Source: Eledone cirrhosa
Lineage: Eukaryota
Assembly (NCBI GenBank): GCA_964016885.1
Contig: CAXHJY010001620.1
Location: forward strand, 1-30,591
Reading direction: 5' to 3'
Length of the DNA stretch: 30,591 nucleotides
Shown here one piece after another: positions 5,411 through 30,591 of this stretch (position 1 is the stretch's first letter; the number at the start of each line of letters is the position of its first letter). The notes beneath the pieces were generated by a model. The model was given only the letters and a program-made list of their open reading frames with translations, was not told the DNA's origin and did no database searches. A program made the position numbers and the translations under genes.

Positions 5411-5545
5411 CGGATCTAGCTGTCGAAACGGCCGGAGCTCAACCGCCGGGGCCCTGAATCTTTTCATATTACCCACTCTACTATCCCAAGTATCGAGTAC
5501 TCTGGTGGGTTAGGATCTAGCTGGTTTTTACCAGACCCTATCTGT
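5411..5545. mobile_element. Diverged copy of the fold-back family, without the inverted arm
   Basis: GTCGAAACGGCCGGAGCTCAACCGCCGGGG and TATTACCCACTCTACTATCCCAAGTATCGAGTACTCTGGTG align to 14288-14371. Confidence 0.75.
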
Positions 5546-5579
<34 letters not shown>

Positions 5580-5689
5580 AAAGTTCTATTTAAATCGTTG
5601 GGATACAACAAGCAAATATTTTTATAACTGATATAAAGCACTCAACAAGTATTTAGAGTAAACATACGATATTAAACAAATGGAAACTA

Positions 5690-5796
5690 TATTTATAAAA
5701 CCATATTTATTTCATTATACATATTTCAAGGACACCAAGTTAAATTATGGTGTGCTTTCATCAGATAAAATATAATATAGATCAGTTTTATAAATA
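5690..5796 (-). ncRNA. Type I hammerhead ribozyme motif (PLE-like, quasi-palindromic helix III)
   Basis: Minus strand: CUGAUGA (5764-5758), helix II AAG-C-ACACCA/UGGUGU-C-CUU, GAAAUAUGUAUA, long bulged helix I; predicted cleavage after AUA between 5716 and 5715. Confidence 0.8.
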
Positions 5797-5916
5797 AATA
5801 TTGACATACCCTTAAAAAATACGACCATTACTGTTGGAAGCTCCCGGATAGTGTTGGAAGCTCCCGGATATATATATACAGTTGAAAATTGCAAACTCGA
5901 CTGTCACCACATATTA

Positions 5917-5955
5917 TGAACCTGAAGATTGCGAAAGCATGAAAGTACTTGTTCA
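5917..5955 (+). ncRNA. Minimal type I hammerhead ribozyme motif
   Basis: UGAAC-CUGAAGA-U-UGC-GAAA-GCA-U-GAA-AGUACU-U|GUUCA; palindromic helix III AGUACU; U.U mismatch at the base of helix II. Confidence 0.65.
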
Positions 5956-6123
5956 ATTAACATTTAGAATTTAATATTCTATCATACTATTTCATTATAA
6001 TACCATTATATATTTTAAAGGATTGTAAATAAAACGAGTAAATCAGACAAAGTTGGAATTCCTCTTATTAATATAATCTTCTATACACAATCATACACAC
6101 CCGTGTATATTTACCTATCTATA

Positions 6124-6159
<36 letters not shown>

Positions 6160-6204
6160 CATACGTACAGACAGACATTTTGACGTGCGTCTACATGTGA
6201 AAAA

Positions 6205-6297
6205 CATATATCTGAGGAGCTTTCGATTCCCGAGTCAGGAACGACATCAATCGATTGTTCCTCGAGCTGATCGACAATGAAACATATGTAATATGTG
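6205..6297 (+). ncRNA. Type I hammerhead ribozyme motif with long helix II
   Basis: CAUAUAU-CUGAGGA-[UCGAUU/GAUCGA; AGGAACGA/UUGUUCCU]-GAA-ACAUAUGU-A|AUAUGUG; base of helix II imperfect. Confidence 0.6.
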
Positions 6298-6424
6298 GTT
6301 AAATATGTATATGATGCAACAGTGATTCTTTGTTCCCTAATTATTTTATATATATGACCGGCAACCGCTCTGTATAATCAGTTCCTGATTATTACTTTAA
6401 TTCTGTAAGAATCCATCATTCATA

Positions 6425-6519
6425 ATTTTCAGCAAACAGGAGGAGTGCCGAGCTTTGATAAGTACCAACAAGTACGAAACAGAGTTCTGTCAGCTTATCT
6501 CTCCTTGTTTGCTGAAAAT
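6425..6519 (+). ncRNA. Type I hammerhead ribozyme, U3:A8 core variant, full helix III
   Basis: GAGCU-UUGAUAA-GUAC-CAACAA-GUAC-GAA-ACAG-AGUU-CUGU-C|AGCUU; helix I extended by AUUUUCAGCAAACAGGAG/CUCCUUGUUUGCUGAAAAU. Confidence 0.85.
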
Positions 6520-6704
6520 AAAAGTAAGTGACATTGTCACTACTTTAAAACAATAGCGTAAGGTCTTCAAAATGTTTTTAATTAAGCATACAATGTATTG
6601 CAAAATACACTATATATATATATATATATATATATGCGAGTGCATCTATTTTTGTATTTCATTGTTTGTCTATATATATGTGTGTGTGTGGCTGTGCATG
6701 TATG

Positions 6705-6745
<41 letters not shown>

Positions 6746-6888
6746 ATTAAAATACTGGGGCGTGTTGGAGTTAAACACCCTCTTCGTATTATAGAAATGA
6801 CAGTAAAAGGTATAGCTCAATGTAATTAAACAGAGCCGAAGAATTATGAAAATAAAACAAAGAAGCCTTCAATACATCAAAAGTCTTT

Positions 6889-6933
6889 ATTAGCCAACAA
6901 TGTTTCGTCCTATTAAGGACTCATCAGGGCAAT
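6889..6933 (-). ncRNA. Minimal type I hammerhead ribozyme motif
   Basis: Minus strand: AUUGCC-CUGAUGA-GUCCU-UAAU-AGGAC-GAA-ACAUUGU-U|GGCUAAU; canonical core and G10.1-C11.1 pair. Confidence 0.8.
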
Positions 6934-7220
6934 CAAAACCACAAGAAGCACTATCGGCCAATACAAGCCGAAAACTCCGAAGAATATGGAGTGTACATAC
7001 ACTAAAGTATTGGAAGATTATGGGTAAAAATATATAATAAAAATCACTAAGGAGGTGGATAACATTTTGAACCATATTACATATATATATATGCACACAA
7101 ACAGACACACATACATACATTTATATATTCATACATATAGAAAGATAGATTAACAGACAGCAGACAGATAAATATACGTATATATATATATATATATAAT
7201 ATTCAGGATACTATTTATGC

Positions 7221-7316
7221 TTATGTATATTTTAAACTTTTTATAGTTATGTATATTTTAAACTTTTAATAGTTATGTATATTTTAAACTTTTAATAGTT
7301 ATGTATATGTTAAACC
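7221..7316. repeat. ~26-bp tandem repeat (TTATGTATATTTTAAACTTTTAATAG), about 3.5 units
   Basis: Direct inspection. Confidence 0.85.
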
Positions 7317-7534
7317 TTAAACAGTGAAGGTCAGTAATTTATTACTACCTTATTACCAGTAAGATAAATAGCTCAATGTAATAACATCATTTGTTCTACA
7401 TATATTTGAATTGCTGTACAAAGATAGTATAGTATAATATATGTCACTCCACTGTACATCAATATATATATATATGTATCTGTATGTCTCTTGCGTTGGA
7501 TAGGAGGTCAATTATATGTACAAACACTGAAAAA

Positions 7535-7581
7535 TGCTCCGAAGACTCCAAGCCTAGGTTTGGATGAAACAATTGTAAGTG
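7535..7581 (+). ncRNA. Variant or degenerate minimal hammerhead motif (CCGAAGA core)
   Basis: UGCU-CCGAAGA-C-UCCAAGC-CUAG-GUUUGGA-U-GAA-ACAAUUGU-A|AGUG; palindromic helix III; U4 replaced by C. Confidence 0.5.
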
Positions 7582-7619
7582 AATAAATGCTTTGAACATA
7601 GCTTTGATTCTTGTGAATT

Positions 7620-8470
<851 letters not shown>

Positions 8471-9570: not shown

Positions 9571-10300
9571 ATAGATACATCACGTCTCCAGATACAACAC
9601 GTCTCCAGATACATCACATCTCCAGATACAACACGTCTCCAGATACATCACGTCTCCAGATACAACACGTCTCCAGATACATCACATCTCCAGATACAAC
9701 ACGTCTCCAGATACAACACGTCTCCAGATACAACACGTCTCCAGATACAACACGTCTCCAGATACATCACATCTCAAGATGTAACATCTCCAAATACATC
9801 ACATCTCCAGATGTAACACATTTCCAGATACATCACATCTCCAGATGTAACACATCTCCAAGTACATCACATCTCCAGATACATGTAACACATCTCAAGA
9901 TGTAACACATCTCCAGATACATCACATCTCCAGATACAACACATCTCCAGATACATCACATCTCCAGATGTAACACATCTCCAAGTTCATCACATCTCCA
10001 GATACATCACATCTCCAGATGTAACATCTCCAAGTTCATCACATCTCCAGATACATCACATCTCAAGATGTAACATCTCCTGATACATCACATCTCCAGA
10101 TGTAACACATCTCCAGATACATCACATCTCCAGATGTAACACATCTCCAAGTTCATCACATCTCCAGATACAACACATCTCCAGATAGAACACATCTCCA
10201 GATGTAACTCATCTCCAGATACAACACATCTCCAGATACATCACATCTCCAGATGTAACACATCACATCTCCAGATGTAACACATCTCCAGATACAACAT
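9571..10300. repeat. 17-bp minisatellite (ACATCTCCAGATACATC and variants), about 43 units
   Basis: TCTCCAGA at 9602, 9619, 9636 etc. Confidence 0.95.
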
Positions 10301-12327: not shown

Positions 12328-12604
12328 TTGTTTCTACTTTTGGCTCCAGGCCAGCAATTACGCCCAGTACATTACTGGTACTTTATTTATCGACCCCCGT
12401 AAGGATGAAAGGAAGAGCTAACCTTGGCGGTTAATAATAATAATCAATGTTTCAAGGCCAGCAATTACCCCAGTATATTACTGGTACTTTATTTTTCGAC
12501 CCCCGTAAGGATGAAAGGAAGAGCTAACCTTGGCGGTTAATAATAATAATCTATGTTTCAAGGCCAGCAATTACTCCAGTGCATTACTGGTACTTTATTT
12601 TATC
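12328..12604 (-). mobile_element. Three tandem truncated family A SINE 3' halves (~106-bp period)
   Basis: AGGCCAGCAATTAC...ACTGGTACTTTATTT recurs three times, separated by (TAA)n tails. Confidence 0.85.
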
Positions 12605-14208: not shown

Positions 14209-14417
14209 AACGAGTAGGACCCCGACGGCTGAGCTCAAGCCGTTTTGACGGCTAATTCTGGACTAAAAATTTTAGTCCAGAATTAGCCGTCGAAACGGCT
14301 TGAGCTCAGCCGTCGGGGTACTACTCGTTCCTATTACCCACTCTACTACCCTAAGTATTGAGTACTTTGGTGCGTTATGGTCCACCTGGTTCCTCACCAC
14401 ATTTCCTTCGTTATCCC
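14204..14417. mobile_element. Fold-back interspersed repeat inserted in (TA)n, copy 2
   Basis: ~131-bp near-perfect palindrome 14204-14334 centred on AAAAATTTT, followed by a tail shared with copy 1. Confidence 0.85.
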
Positions 14418-16920: not shown

Positions 16921-17598
16921 GACGTTCTAACGACTGCCATTCTATCAGACGTTCTAACGACTCTGCCATTCTATCAGACGTTCTAACGACTGTACCATTC
17001 TATCAGACGTCATTCTAACGAATCTGCCATTCTATCAGACGTTCTAACGACTGTACCATTCTATCAGACGTCATTCTAACGAATCTGCCATTCTATCAGA
17101 CGTCATTCTAACGACTCTGCCATTCTATCAGACGTTCTAACGACTGTACCATTCTATCAGACGTCATTCTAACGAATCTGCCATTCTATCAGACGTCATT
17201 CTAACGAATCTGCTATTCTATCAGGCGTTCTAACGACTCTACCATTCTATCAGACGTCATTCTAACGAATCTCCCATTCTATCAGACGTCATTCTAACGA
17301 CTCTGCCGTTCTATCTGATGTTCTAACGACTCTACCATTCTATCAGACGTTCTAACGACTCTACCATTCTATCAGACGTTCTAACGACTCTACCATTCTA
17401 TCAGACGTTCTAACGACTCTACCATTCTATCAGACGTTCTAACGACTCTACCATTCTATCAGACGTTCTAACGACTCTGCCATTCTCTCTGACGTTCTAA
17501 CGACCCTGCCATTCTATCAGACGTTCTAACGACCCTGCCATTCTATCAGACGTTCTAACGACTCTGCCATTCTCTCTGGCGTTCTAACGACTCTACCA
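16921..17598. repeat. 29/32-bp minisatellite (GACGTTCTAACGACTCTACCATTCTATCA)n, about 23 units
   Basis: Regular unit with a 3-bp insertion variant; not CRISPR because there are no spacers. Confidence 0.95.
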
Positions 17599-21282: not shown

Positions 21283-22170
21283 AATATAAATTAGCGAGAA
21301 TCATATTTCAGCTCAGGAATTAACGAAAAATAACTTCCGAGATGTGTGGCAAGCGCTCGACGATTCATATGAATCAGAGCTACAACATACGTTAAAGGCC
21401 AAACACACTGAGATGGTGGTTAAACTAATCATCCGCACAGCCAAAAAAACGACTAAGTAATTCGTGTCAAACAATAAAAATATATGTGATTGAAAATTTA
21501 CCCGGACCCCTGGATGGTTGGTAAAATCCAGTATTTGGGTTTCTGCGACTCCATATATCAATTACTGTCCGCTTACATAAAGAATGTTAGGCTTCTGGTA
21601 AGATGATTGAACAAGGAAGCCGTGTTATCAACAGGTTTTTGCTCAAATGCTATATATAAGTGTGACTATTACTGACCCCACGTGGAGTTCAGCAAGGGAG
21701 GCAACACTTATATTAGGCGAATGAATTCAGTTGTGTATAATATTGCGAGAATGCAAAATATCACAAATCGAATAAAGCTCTCGACAGAATGGTTAAATAT
21801 AACAAAGCTATTCATCAGTCAATAGAATCAACTGGGTATATATATATATATATATATATACCCAGACACGTATAAATATGCGCTACTGATTGGCATCCAT
21901 CAGAGTGATCTCAGTAGATTCTATAACAACTGGAGAATATAAAGGTAGAGGGTGAATGAATTGATTAGAAACCCCTATCTTCAGCTTCGCCAAATTAGCA
22001 GTAACCTACATCAGGAAATAAGTGAGTATATTCCTAATTAAATGTTCGGGGTGCTAACTAATTGTATTGTGTGGAAAATTGGCTGTATTATTTCATATGA
22101 GATATATCGAATATACATATATATATATGTGTGTGTGTGTGTGAGAAAAACCACAAACCCTCCATCTCAA

Positions 22171-22214
22171 TTCTACTTTTGAAAAGCACAAGAACTGCGA
22201 AACCGGTAAAGGAA
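22171..22214 (+). ncRNA. Minimal type I hammerhead, U3:A8 core variant
   Basis: UUC.UA.CUU-UUGAAAA-GCA-CAAGAAC-UGC-GAA-ACCGGU-A|AAG-GAA; palindromic helix III ACCGGU, GUA site. Confidence 0.65.
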
Positions 22215-22423
22215 CCGATTAAATGTATATTTTTATTAAAAAAAAGACTCCAGTTGCATTTTCGATTTCATTTTTTTTCCTTATACGTGTAGGACACCTC
22301 GGTTATTTTTCAATTTGTAAAAAAAAAACTCACTTTCTAATATATATATGTATATATATATATATATTTCGTTTCTGAATTTGTTTAGCAAGATTCTTTA
22401 TCTGAAATCGTGTTTTGAAACCG

Positions 22424-22548: not shown

Positions 22549-22663
22549 ATATATATATATATATATATTAAAGTGTTAAACAATATTCAATGATTATGTC
22601 AAAGAATGAGTTTTACAGAAGGTTGGAAGCACTCAACGGTTAAATAATTTTCTGAAGTTATTA

Positions 22664-22896
22664 ATATTAAAATATAAGTATTAATAAAATAGATGTTCTT
22701 TTGATCAATTACATTTTATTATACATATTTCGGCTGTACAACAGTACGTCCTCAGTAACCATTTAACATCTCAGGGTATGTCATGTATCATTATATTTTG
22801 TCTGATGAGGACGTACTGTTCTACATCCGAAATATGTATAATAAAATGTAATTGATCAAAAGAACATCTATTTTATTAATACTTATATTTTAATAT
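22664..22896. mobile_element. 91-bp inverted repeat containing an HHR; putative Penelope-like terminal-repeat remnant
   Basis: Arms 22664-22754 and 22806-22896 (2 mismatches), 51-bp spacer, island flanked by (TA)n. Confidence 0.7.
22787..22856 (+). ncRNA. Type I hammerhead ribozyme motif
   Basis: AUUAUAUUUUGU-CUGAUGA-GGA.C.GUA-CUGUUC-UAC.A.UCC-GAAAUAUGUAUA|AUAAAAUGUAAU; 12-bp helix I with two G-U pairs; cleavage after 22840. Confidence 0.8.
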
Positions 22897-24478: not shown

Positions 24479-24932
24479 TATATATATATAATATATATAC
24501 ATATAATATATAATATATATATATAATATATATACATATAATATATAATATATATATATACATATAATATATATATATACATATAATATATATATATATA
24601 CATATAATATATAATATATAATGTATATATATACATATAATATATATATATATACATATAATATATAATATATATATATATAATATATAATATATATACA
24701 TATAATATATATATATACATATAATATATATATATAATATATAATATATATATATACATATAATATATATATATACATATAATATATAATATATATATAT
24801 ACATATATACATATATACATATTATATATATATATACATATAATATATATATATACATATAATATATAATATATATACATATAATATATATATATACATA
24901 TAATATATATATATATACATATAATACATAAC

Positions 24933-24963
<31 letters not shown>

Positions 24964-26241
24964 CATATATACATATATATATACATATATACATATAATA
25001 TATACATATATACATATAATATATATATATACATATAATATATATATATACATATAATATATATATATATACATATATACATATAATATATATATATACA
25101 TATATACATATAATATACATATATACATATAATATATATATATATACATATATACATATAATATATATATATACATATATACATATATATATACATATAT
25201 ACATATAATATATATATATATACATATATACATATAATATATATATATATACATATATACATATAATATATAATATAAATATATAATATAAATATATACA
25301 TATATATATATATATACATATATACATATATATATACATATATACATATATATATATACATATAATATATATATACATATAATATATATATATACATATA
25401 ATATATAAATATACATATATATAATATATATATACACATATAATATATAAATATACATATATATAATATATATATACATATATATATATACATATAATAT
25501 ATAATATATATATATACATATAATATATAATATATATATATATATACATATATATAATATATATATACATATAATATATATATATACATATAATATATAA
25601 TATATATATATGTATACATATAATATATATATATACATATAAATATATATATATACATATAATATATAATATATATATATATACATATATATAATATATA
25701 TATACATATATATAATATATATATACATATATATATATACATATAATATATATATATATACATATAATATATAATATATATATATACATATAATATATAA
25801 TATATATATATACATATAATATATAATATATATATATACATATAATATATATATATACATATAATATATAATATATATATATACATATAATATATATATA
25901 TACATATAATATATAATATATATATATACATATAATATATATATATACATATAATATATAATATATATATATACATATAATATATATATATACATATAAT
26001 ATATATATATACATATATATAATATATATATACATATATATAATATATATATACATATATATATATATAAAATATATATACATATACATATAATATATAT
26101 ATATACATATAATATATATATATACATATAATATATATATATACATATATATAATATATATATATATAATATATATATATACATATAATATATATATATA
26201 CATATAATATATATATATATATATATACATATATACATATA

Positions 26242-26274
<33 letters not shown>

Positions 26275-29200
26275 CATATATACATATAATATATATATAT
26301 ACATATAATATATATATATATACATATAATAATATATACATATATATACATATAATATATATATATATACATATATACATATAATATATATATATACATA
26401 TATACATATAATATATATATATATACATATATACATATAATATATATATATATACATATATACATATAATATATATATATATACATATATACATATATAT
26501 ATACATATATACATATAATATATATATACATATATACATATAATATATATATATACATATATACATATATATAATATATATATACATATATATATATATA
26601 TAATATATATATACATATATATATATACATATAATATATATATATACATATAATATATAATATATATATATACATATAATATATAAATATACATATATAT
26701 AATATATATATACACATATAATATATAAATATACATATATATAATATATATATACATATATACATATATATACATGTATATATATACATATAATATATAA
26801 TATATATATATACATATATATAATATATATATACATATAATATATATATATACATATAATATATTATATATATATATACATGTATATAATATATATATAC
26901 ATATAATATATATATATACATATAATATATAATATATATATATACATATATATAATATATATATACATATAATATATATATACATATAATATATAATATA
27001 TATATATACATATATATAATATATATATACATATATATAATATATATATACATATATATATATATACATATAATATATAATATATATATATACATATAAT
27101 ATATAATATATATATATACATATAATATATATATATACATATATATAATTTATATATACATATATATATATATAAAATATATATACATATACATATAATA
27201 TATATATATACATATACATATAATATATATATATACATATAATATATATATATACATATATATAATATATATATACATATACATATAATATATATATATA
27301 CATATAATATATAATATATACATATATATAATATATATATATACATATATAATATATAATATATATATATACATATAATATATAATATATATATATATAC
27401 ATATATATAATATATATATACATATACATATATATAATATATATATACATATATATATATATAATATATATATACATATATATATATAATATATATATAC
27501 ATATAATATATATATACATATATATATATAATATATATATACATATATATACATATAATATATATATACATATATATAATATATATATATACATATAATA
27601 TATAATATATATGTACATATAATGTATAATATATATATATACATATAATATATAATATATATATACATATAATATATAATATATATATATACATATAATA
27701 TATAATATATATATACATATAATATATAATATATATATATATACATATAATATATAATATATATATACATATAATATATAATATATATATATACATATAA
27801 TATATAATATATATATACATATAATATATAATATATATATACATATAATATATAATATATATATACATAAAATATATAATATATACATATATATAATATA
27901 CATATACATATATAATATACATATATATAATTTACATATACATATAATATACATATATATATATATCATATATATATATAATATATATATATATAAAATA
28001 TTTATATAAATATATACAATATAATATATATATACATATACGTATATATACATATATATACATATATATAATATATATATACATATATATAATATATATA
28101 TACATATATATAATATATATATACATATATATAATATATATATACATATATATTATATATATACATATATATAATATATATACATATATATAATATATAT
28201 ACATATATATAATATATATACATATATATAATATATATACATATATATAATATATATACATATATATAATATATATATATACATATATATAATATATATA
28301 TACATATATATAATATATATACATATATATAATATATATACATATATATAATATATATACATATATATAATATATATACATATATATAATATATATACAT
28401 ATATATAATATATATACATATATATAATATATATACATATATATAATATATATATACATATATATAATATATATACATATATATAATATATATATATACA
28501 TATATATAATATATATATATACATATATATAATATATATATACATATATATAATATATATATACATATATATAATATATATATACATATATATAATATAT
28601 ATATACATATATATAATATATATATACATATATATAATATATATATAATATATATACATATATATATATATATACATATATATAATATATATATACATAT
28701 ATATAATATATATACATATATATAATATATATATACATATATATAATATATATATACATATATATAATATATATATACATATATATAATATATATATACA
28801 TATATATAATATATATACATATATAATATATATATATACATATATATAATATATATACATATATAATATATATATATACATATATATAATATATATACAT
28901 ATATAATATATATATATACATATATATAATATATATATACATATATATAATATATATATACATATATATAATATATATATACATATATATTATATATATA
29001 CATATATATAATATATATATACATATATATAATATATATATACATATATATTATATATATACATATATATAATATATATATACATATATATTATATATAT
29101 ACATATATATAATATATATATACATATATATAATATATATATACATATATATTATATATATACATATATATAATATATATATACATATATATTATATATA

Positions 29201-30591
29201 TACATATATATAATATATATATACATATATATAATATATATATACATATATATTATATATATACATATAAATAATATATATATAGATATGTTATATATAT
29301 ACATATATATAATATATATATACATATATATTATATATATACATATATATAATATATATATACATATATATAATATATATATACATATATATAATATATA
29401 TATACATATATAATATATATATACATATATAATATATATATACATATATATAATATATATATACATATATATAATATATATATACATATATATAATATAT
29501 ATATACATATATATAATATATATATACATATATATAATATATATATACATATATATAATATATATACATATATATAATATATATACATATATATAATATA
29601 TATATACATATATATAATATATATATACATATATATAATATATATATACATATATATTATATATATACATATATATAATATATATATACATATATATTAT
29701 ATATATACATATATATAATATATATATACATATATATTATATATATACATATATATAATATATATATACATATATATTATATATATACATATATATAATA
29801 TATATATATATACATATATATTATATATATACATATATATAATATATATATATAATATATATATATACATATATATAATATATATACATATATATAATAT
29901 ATATATACATATATATAATATATATATACATATATATAATATATATATACATATATAATATATATATACATATATATTATATATATACATATATATTATA
30001 TATATACATATATATAATATATATATAGATATATTATATATATACATATATATTATATATATACATATATATAATATATATATACACATATATAATATAT
30101 ATATACATATATATAATATATATATACATATATATAATATATATATACATATATATAATATATATATACATATATATAATATATATATACATATATATTA
30201 TATATATACATATATATTATATATATACATATATATAATATAGATATAGGTATATATAATATATATATATACATATATATAATATATATATACATATATA
30301 TTATATATATACATATATATTATATATATAGATATATTATATATATAGATATATTATATATATAGATATATTAATATATATAATATATATATACTATATA
30401 TATAATATATATAATATATATACATATATATAATATATATACATATATATACATATATATAATATATATACATATATATAATATATATATAATATATATA
30501 TATATACATATATATAATATATATAATATATATAATATATATATATATATATATACTATATATATAATATATATATACTATATATATATAT
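24479..30591. repeat. ~6.1-kb TA-rich satellite, (TA)nCA(TA)nA units of about 19-30 bp
   Basis: Continuous to the window end; source of the long Y/I/M/C/V pseudo-ORFs. Confidence 0.97.

Follow-up and report, generated by a model that had tools for sequence, protein, structure and literature searches.

Six hammerhead ribozyme-bearing repeats in 1.9 kb of the Eledone cirrhosa genome, probably piled up through insertion into TA microsatellites

How do six dissimilar hammerhead ribozyme (HHR) motifs come to lie on both strands of 1.9 kb of a cephalopod genome? The window analyzed here is a whole unplaced contig of 30.6 kb (30,591 nt; GCA_964016885.1, CAXHJY010001620.1) in the 3.0-Gb genome of Eledone cirrhosa. 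A first-pass annotation had placed six type I HHRs in positions 5690..7581 and proposed a landing zone for tiny retroelements. All six motifs are present there, on the strands claimed:

5708-5772, minus strand: HHR1, in element A; predicted cleavage residue H17 at 5716
5916-5956, plus strand: HHR2, in element B; predicted H17 at 5950
6205-6297, plus strand: HHR3, in element C, with a long helix II; predicted H17 at 6290
6449-6497, plus strand: HHR4, in element D, with a U3-A8 core and a 3-bp helix III; predicted H17 at 6491
6889-6933, minus strand: HHR5, in element E; predicted H17 at 6896
7533-7583, plus strand: HHR6, in element F, with a U4C core; predicted H17 at 7577

By the order of core and helices, all six are type I hammerhead ribozymes, with cleavage as a prediction. 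Each had been credited with a core, GAAA, an NUH site and pairable helices. All are indeed type I, but the cores of HHR4 (UUGAUAA, U3-A8) and HHR6 (CCGAAGA, U4C) are non-canonical, and helix I of HHR6 is weak. The U4C change (window 7539-7545) is family-wide, as C4 was found in 21/21 family F matches with a pattern permitting C or T; we found no mention of such a core in the accessible part of the survey of metazoan HHRs by Cervera and de la Pena (2014, PMC4209133). The copies of F are nevertheless young; the change may be tolerated, or the ribozyme may be dead in an element that was active until recently. In all six motifs, helix III forms a short palindrome or comes close to one, and HHR4, which lies within a long hairpin (6425-6519), also has three pairs able to close as a monomer. 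A short palindromic helix III is the dimer-type design of HHRs in Penelope-like elements (PLEs; PMC4209133).

The islands that carry the motifs had been described as unique. Instead, they are six separate high-copy dispersed repeats found on many contigs: in a genome copy search, each island piece gave at least 40 scored matches spread over many contigs, and an 18-mer of element A has 14,226 exact matches in the genome (control, 0). The limits of elements A to F were drawn from boundaries common to the copies, which gives the following arrangement:

5411..5545, plus strand: remnant of family G, keeping from a seventh HHR only the 3' half (helix III, GAAA at 5425), cut before the core; ends in (TA)n
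5577..5853, minus strand: element A (HHR1): Hydra-type PLE, 3' end (pLTR); ends in (TA)n
5878..6110, plus strand: element B (HHR2): Neptune-type PLE, 3' end
6176..6355, plus strand: element C (HHR3): old Hydra-type PLE, 3' end
6356..6612, plus strand: element D (HHR4): ORF-less tandem unit of 318-319 bp, present as a monomer truncated at the 5' side
6743..7080, minus strand: element E (HHR5): very young Hydra-type PLE, pLTR
7197..7400, minus strand: inverted downstream part of the F repeat, with an internal 26-bp tandem expansion; a 5' inversion of the PLE type
7404..7619, plus strand: element F (HHR6): Hydra-type PLE, piece of the pLTR; ends in (TA)n

As the annotation had noted, little sequence outside the core is shared; the six elements have only words of 11-16 nt in common. 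Element A carries a 20-bp duplication at its 5' junction (5832-5870). Element E is 99.4-99.7% identical to 11 copies, and element C 88-91% identical to its best copies, a spread that makes insertion at different times likely. The 5' ends differ among copies, often with an inverted piece, which is the insertion pattern of PLEs (PMC8557442; PMC3846280).

No PLE ORF was found in the window itself. When the islands were followed in other copies for linkage to RT and GIY-YIG ORFs, parents were found for five families. A, B, C, E and F continue 5' for 0.3-1.6 kb into ORFs with RT and GIY-YIG parts, and the ORF-linked copies are 97-99% identical to those in the window (81% for C). The combination of RT and C-terminal GIY-YIG in one ORF was recognized in A and E by motifs and tblastn, and in B by Pfam. 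For A, a 588-aa RT-EN stretch is followed after 1.5 kb by A itself in locus L105, with which L106 agrees; ORFs near A in L089 and L091 turned out not to belong to its parent. The B parent (L096; also L087 and L103) has a 773-aa stop-free ORF, a 3' UTR, B and an inverted 5' copy; its GIY-YIG domain scores above the Pfam cut-off and RVT_1 below it (E 3.3e-6; 27.4 vs 29.6 bits). The E parent (L085) consists of a pLTR, an 803-aa stop-free stretch to the YIG motif with a frameshift after it, a 1.6-kb UTR, a second pLTR and an inverted piece. In L088, F is joined by its continuation and an RT ORF 51-62% identical to the E parent (RT part only), and the inverted F part directly continues F in L088, L101, L102 and L104. 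The common sequence of C reaches about 800 bp upstream. C follows a degraded ORF end on the same strand in 4/14 loci including the query (L184, L185, L186, L190), and same-strand C is absent downstream of the ORF end in the other 10/14. A pLTR, partial tandems and an inverted 5'-truncated copy were seen in L085, L096, L106, L136 and L088.

To place the parents, we read their motifs. CxCX5C is present in A and E; E and F have DKT together with RWR rather than RWK. A single cysteine precedes YIG, and Pfam gave no match for three Hydra-type proteins (L085, L091, L088). The C parent, known as degraded pieces, was assigned by tblastn likeness only. A, C, E and F thus appear to be Hydra-type, by motifs and likeness and not by a tree. 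They resemble the described Hydra clade, which is characterized by CxCX5C, DKT, RW(K/R), a GIY-YIG domain without two internal cysteines and (TA)n insertion, in the linker, DKT, RW(K/R), the lack of the cysteine pair inside GIY-YIG, the HHR near the 3' end and the (TA)n targets (PMC8557442). Unlike that clade, whose members are under 3 kb (PMC8557442), the E parent measures about 4.6 kb, including an N-rich insert and a UTR of 1.6 kb. In the 773-aa ORF of B we read DKG, GxKF, a CX4CxxC linker and CxxC inside GIY-YIG (CCHH endonuclease), matching the DKG, GxKF, CX2-5CxxC linker and GIY-YIG CxxC of Neptune-type PLEs (PMC8557442). B is accordingly placed as putatively Neptune-type by motifs, not by a tree, with Nematis as a further candidate; an earlier Poseidon-like assignment was dropped on the CX4CxxC linker. 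The A parent has 107 homologues, mostly unnamed proteins. The two that do bear informative names, Hydra-type PLE proteins of Octopus (P0099, P0101), are misnamed: the annotations label them "GATA zinc finger domain-containing protein 14-like", probably on account of N-rich inserts.

The annotation had assigned the motifs to the PLE and retrozyme types of HHR, and this was borne out, five lying in PLE ends and one in an ORF-less retrozyme. Its picture of tiny ORF-less elements survives for D only; A, B, C, E and F are 5'-truncated PLE ends. It is therefore improbable that all six are dedicated ORF-less ribozyme retroelements propagating as such. Most copies are short and without an ORF, D truly lacks one, and many B copies begin at one point near 5878 and could represent a short self-amplifying subfamily; however, the other five families continue into ORFs with RT and GIY-YIG, and their copies differ in where the 5' end lies.

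The idea of a landing zone that favours (TA)n was supported, as 3' ends lie mostly in (TA)n in unrelated families inserted at different times. (TA)4+ was found within 30 nt of the 3' end in 11/11 copies of A, 9/13 of B, 6/13 of C, 19/19 of D, 9/11 of E and 7/11 of F, compared to 11% at random places. The value for D is partly circular because an internal TA tract of D lies there, and the two E copies without a (TA)n end continue into the ORF. Within the cluster, D begins in the TA tail of C, and only a short TA run separates A from B. Elsewhere, in L178, a Hydra element sits inside the TA tract of a D dimer, the only direct case of nesting. We conclude that the 1.9-kb stretch is, very probably, a pile-up of six independent insertions of HHR-bearing repeats, five truncated PLE 3' ends and one ORF-less retrozyme, which likely arrived sequentially via TA-microsatellite targeting.

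On the known PLE cycle, the GIY-YIG endonuclease would nick (TA)n, and RT would prime on the AU-rich 3' end of the RNA and mostly halt within 200-350 nt. Since the HHR lies 150-250 nt from the 3' end, such stops would keep it in most stubs. Because insertions stay TA-flanked and D has an internal TA tract, old insertions would in turn become targets for new ones. The HHRs themselves would cut precursor RNA, mostly as dimers via the palindromic helix III.

To compare the local density with that of the genome, we used a random sample of 39 arbitrary 10-kb stretches (389.8 kb). Six families in 1.9 kb lie in the extreme tail: the Poisson probability of five or more is 1.8e-6, the maximum in the 39 stretches was three families per 1.9 kb (variance/mean 1.6), and four families were met in one of 78 anchored 3-kb loci. 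The excess over Poisson calls for local attraction, which shared (TA)n targeting and nesting would provide. A density well over random would also be expected if the cluster were one composite multi-ribozyme RNA under selection at a host-co-opted locus. We regard this as very unlikely, since none of the other copies examined has its neighbours in the window order, the block being met only here, and since the motifs are on mixed strands, differ in age and carry private helix changes in the window copies, e.g. in loop 3 of D.

The motifs themselves were checked with a type I descriptor on 5601-7620, which found three with the strict CUGANGA core and five of the six with relaxed cores. HHR3 was not caught because its long helix II is irregular; it is confirmed by eye and by a family pattern with 28 matches. 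In 1000 dinucleotide shuffles, the strict core gave 0 matches in 1000/1000, and the relaxed core 0 matches in 998 and one in two. When microsatellites were removed, the relaxed core gave 0 matches in 991 shuffles and one in nine. Five real motifs thus stand against a maximum of one in any shuffle, the comparison that the annotation had proposed. The Rfam search that it had also proposed was less clear: two of the six were matched, but both below the gathering score, by Hammerhead_1 (6889-6933, minus strand, 29.1 bits, E 1.6e-4) and HH9 (6438-6514, plus strand, 24.6 bits, E 0.0034). Over the entire window, the 150 Rfam matches listed were microsatellite-driven miRNA noise. In folding, the catalytic three-way junction was not the minimum-energy structure of any of the six monomers; HHR1 (z -3.5) and HHR4 (z -6.5) stood out from shuffles, and the remaining four ranged from -0.4 to -1.75.

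Compensatory changes, whose absence would have told against the annotation, were found in the A superfamily and between D and its sister D2. For the former, we aligned 18 motifs picked by the core and by helix I and III anchors without a requirement on helix II; the alignment omits subfamilies with longer helices. Seven of the nine helix II pairs were altered on both sides, a count inflated by relatedness. Helix II cells were paired in 97.5% of cases vs 91.0% in shuffles (0/500 shuffles as high), and in 34-54% when slid. Between D and D2, the core lies at an identical offset with C3-G8 exchanged for U3-A8, and helices I, II and III and a long basal stem all differ yet pair. What the covariation supports is that the fold has been under selection in active lineages, not that the window copies are active; the lone copies in the window are probably inert. 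Chance matches in AT-rich DNA, which energies no better than shuffles in four of six motifs and two sub-threshold Rfam matches might suggest, are refuted by the shuffle controls, the covariation and the position of the HHR at the same place near the 3' end in every family, and can be virtually dismissed.

Element D differs from the other five. The sequence past its end equals the sequence before its start, giving a unit of 318-319 bp. A 25-mer of D has 176 exact genome matches; four head-to-tail dimers (318-319 bp) and 99 cores of the U3-A8 type were seen among the first 100 matches listed. The longest stop-free stretch is 47 aa in the D dimer and 59 aa in D2. No same-strand PLE ORF belonging to D was found in 25 other D loci screened, and against eight PLE loci, six of them parent loci, the only likeness to D was TA words plus, in L091, a single fragment of D itself; no PLE partner or pLTR homology of D was found. 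Two D cores 2.5 kb apart in L178 had looked like a pLTR-ORF-pLTR parent but are the D dimer with its nested Hydra element, and in L002, L005 and L014 the pieces of PLE ORF close to D run in the other direction. In one D copy (L013:1148-1455), another hammerhead, of the CUGAUGA type but with an identical CAACA loop, stands in place of the usual ribozyme region, possibly through a template switch.

D2 is alignable to D end to end, with units of 310-311 bp and a C3-G8 core, and its 21-mer core has 12,336 exact genome matches. As judged from their sequence, D and D2 are non-LTR retrozymes, i.e. ORF-less tandem units with one type I HHR each. Like those of other animals (PMC7229834; Li, Clavereau and Pollet 2026), they are of low GC content, range from monomers to multimers, occur beside PLEs and have units of about 310-320 bp. 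The first 100 D2 matches fell into 13 loci, of which 11 were examined and two singletons left out. Two-armed, back-to-back arrays were present in 10/11 (e.g. L198 = G000:C1:1238800-1245200; L199-L208), with up to 10 ribozymes per arm. In 10/10 two-armed loci, the arms end about 130 nt and 164 nt past the cleavage site, 34 nt apart, and the ends lie in (TA)n (eight clean, two in degenerate TA). PLE insertions carry a 30-40-bp tail on one end only (PMC8557442; PMC3846280), and the two fixed arm ends match such a one-ended tail. The back-to-back arms, the 34-nt PLE tail on one arm and the (TA)n targets set D2 apart from known non-LTR retrozymes; the words "inverted" and "opposite" are absent from the accessible text of PMC7229834.

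Among nine D2 arrays with at least two full units, all units were identical in seven, across arms too, and a single change was present in two. Between arrays, we counted 0-5 changes (unit identity 98-100%). The array in L200 differs from all others by 3-5 private changes, present in 9/9 of its units. A circular RNA template copied repeatedly would best explain these arrays, and copying of this kind has been proposed for PLEs (PMC4209133). D/D2 units would be cut to monomers, likely circularized, and then copied in trans by PLE RT. We lean, with some reserve, towards reading the arrays as footprints of rolling-circle reverse transcription, in which a PLE RT/endonuclease copies a 310-nt circular RNA from two (TA)n primings 34 nt apart, for up to 10 rounds per arm. 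Formation without a circle, by unequal crossing-over after insertion, from linear multimers of a uniform master array or through homogenization by the assembler, is the less probable but still serious alternative. Local amplification through unequal crossover is the model proposed for retrozymes by Li et al. (2026, 10.64898/2026.07.22.740005), and many arrays share an identical unit (distance 0 among L199, L201, L204, L205 and L193). On the other hand, both inverted arms are multimeric and mutually identical, array-private variants occupy every unit of both arms, and the arms stop at two fixed registers in all loci.

To estimate the genome-wide load, the descriptor was applied to the random sample. 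It found 50 motifs vs 0-2 in five shuffles; they fall into about 24 crude families, and about five look spurious by eye. Plain extrapolation (about 384,000) was rejected as an overshoot, since the A 18-mer occurs five times in the sample vs 1.85 expected from its genome-wide count. The pattern CTGANGA-N12-40-GAAA has 573,876 genome-wide matches vs 182,843 for the reversed pattern, a control that is imperfect for composition, and 36/89 such matches in the sample passed the full descriptor. This gives about 232,000 HHRs (bootstrap 170,000-290,000), or about 80 motifs per Mb, excluding U3-A8, U4C and long-helix families. The load is therefore estimated at 2-4 x 10^5 HHRs in 20 or more families. 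Reported PLE HHR loads are about 2,000 and 1,300 in Schistosoma, 4,000 in coelacanth and 9,000 in Xenopus (PMC4209133). The largest published count that we compared, 126,247 in axolotl, comes from a far larger genome, so that by our estimate the Eledone load exceeds it despite a much smaller genome. The giant squid has 235 Rfam matches, obtained by a method that would miss most of the HHRs described here.

The PLE HHRs of PMC4209133 share further features with those found here. In both, type I folds combine a short palindromic helix III with a long helix II, one genome holds many families of dissimilar sequence, most copies are single and truncated, pairs of motifs on opposite strands lie 100-700 bp from each other, and the U3-A8 variant occurs. 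The annotation had suspected an undescribed cephalopod system. An Octopus Hydra PLE with HHR and (TA)n preference is already known (Hydra-1_Obim, Octopus bimaculoides; Craig et al. 2021, PMC8557442), but we found no description of the present families, of D/D2 or of the load. The HHR sequence that the accessible part of that paper gives for Hydra-1_Obim recurs in none of the Hydra-type families found here, of which there are at least four. Apart from Craig et al. and the squid genome paper, our literature search on octopus hammerheads, PLEs and retrozymes brought up nothing concerning these families; supplements of PMC7229834, PMC4209133 and Li et al. may list cephalopod HHRs. Cephalopods are not among the sampled taxa in the accessible parts of PMC7229834 and Li et al. 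2026, and two cephalopod repeat papers, including a 2026 repeat annotation of Octopus vulgaris, mention Penelope but not ribozymes in the text available.

The window cluster is the dense end of a known pattern, and the notable parts are the D2 array architecture and the ribozyme load. Published work states the role of PLE hammerheads and the movement of retrozymes as open questions. If the rolling-circle reading is true, animal retrozymes are mechanically tied to PLE machinery and the PLE hammerhead gains a role. Because this genome holds young D2 alongside coding PLEs that are also young (E, B), the circular-template model is testable. Many repeats filed as "unclassified SINEs" could in fact be ends of PLEs or retrozymes, and intronic HHR copies could, as a conjecture, cut host pre-mRNA.

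Further repeats were observed in the window. Pieces of family G, which is very abundant, lie at 780-960, 5411-5545 and 14284-14391, and 13 pieces that span the 5411..5545 part occur in the 39 random stretches. Most G copies are cut or inverted inside helix II, so that only the 3' half of the HHR is left; a complete U3-A8 version is present in L034. A further full HHR of the A superfamily (22796-22846, plus strand) lies in a PLE-end-like repeat at 22580-22880 with a short inverted copy behind it. A U3-A8 hammerhead-like motif (22173-22214, plus strand; repeat at 22150-22340) belongs to a family seen five times in the random sample. An abundant SINE-like repeat with no descriptor match has copies and partial tandems at 290-670, 1140-1750, 2770-2960 and 12348-12600. 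Minisatellites of 31, 17 and 29 bp occupy 1830-2501, 9573-10299 and 16921-17598, and a 6-kb TA-rich array of a 19-bp repeat (24480-30591) reaches the contig end.
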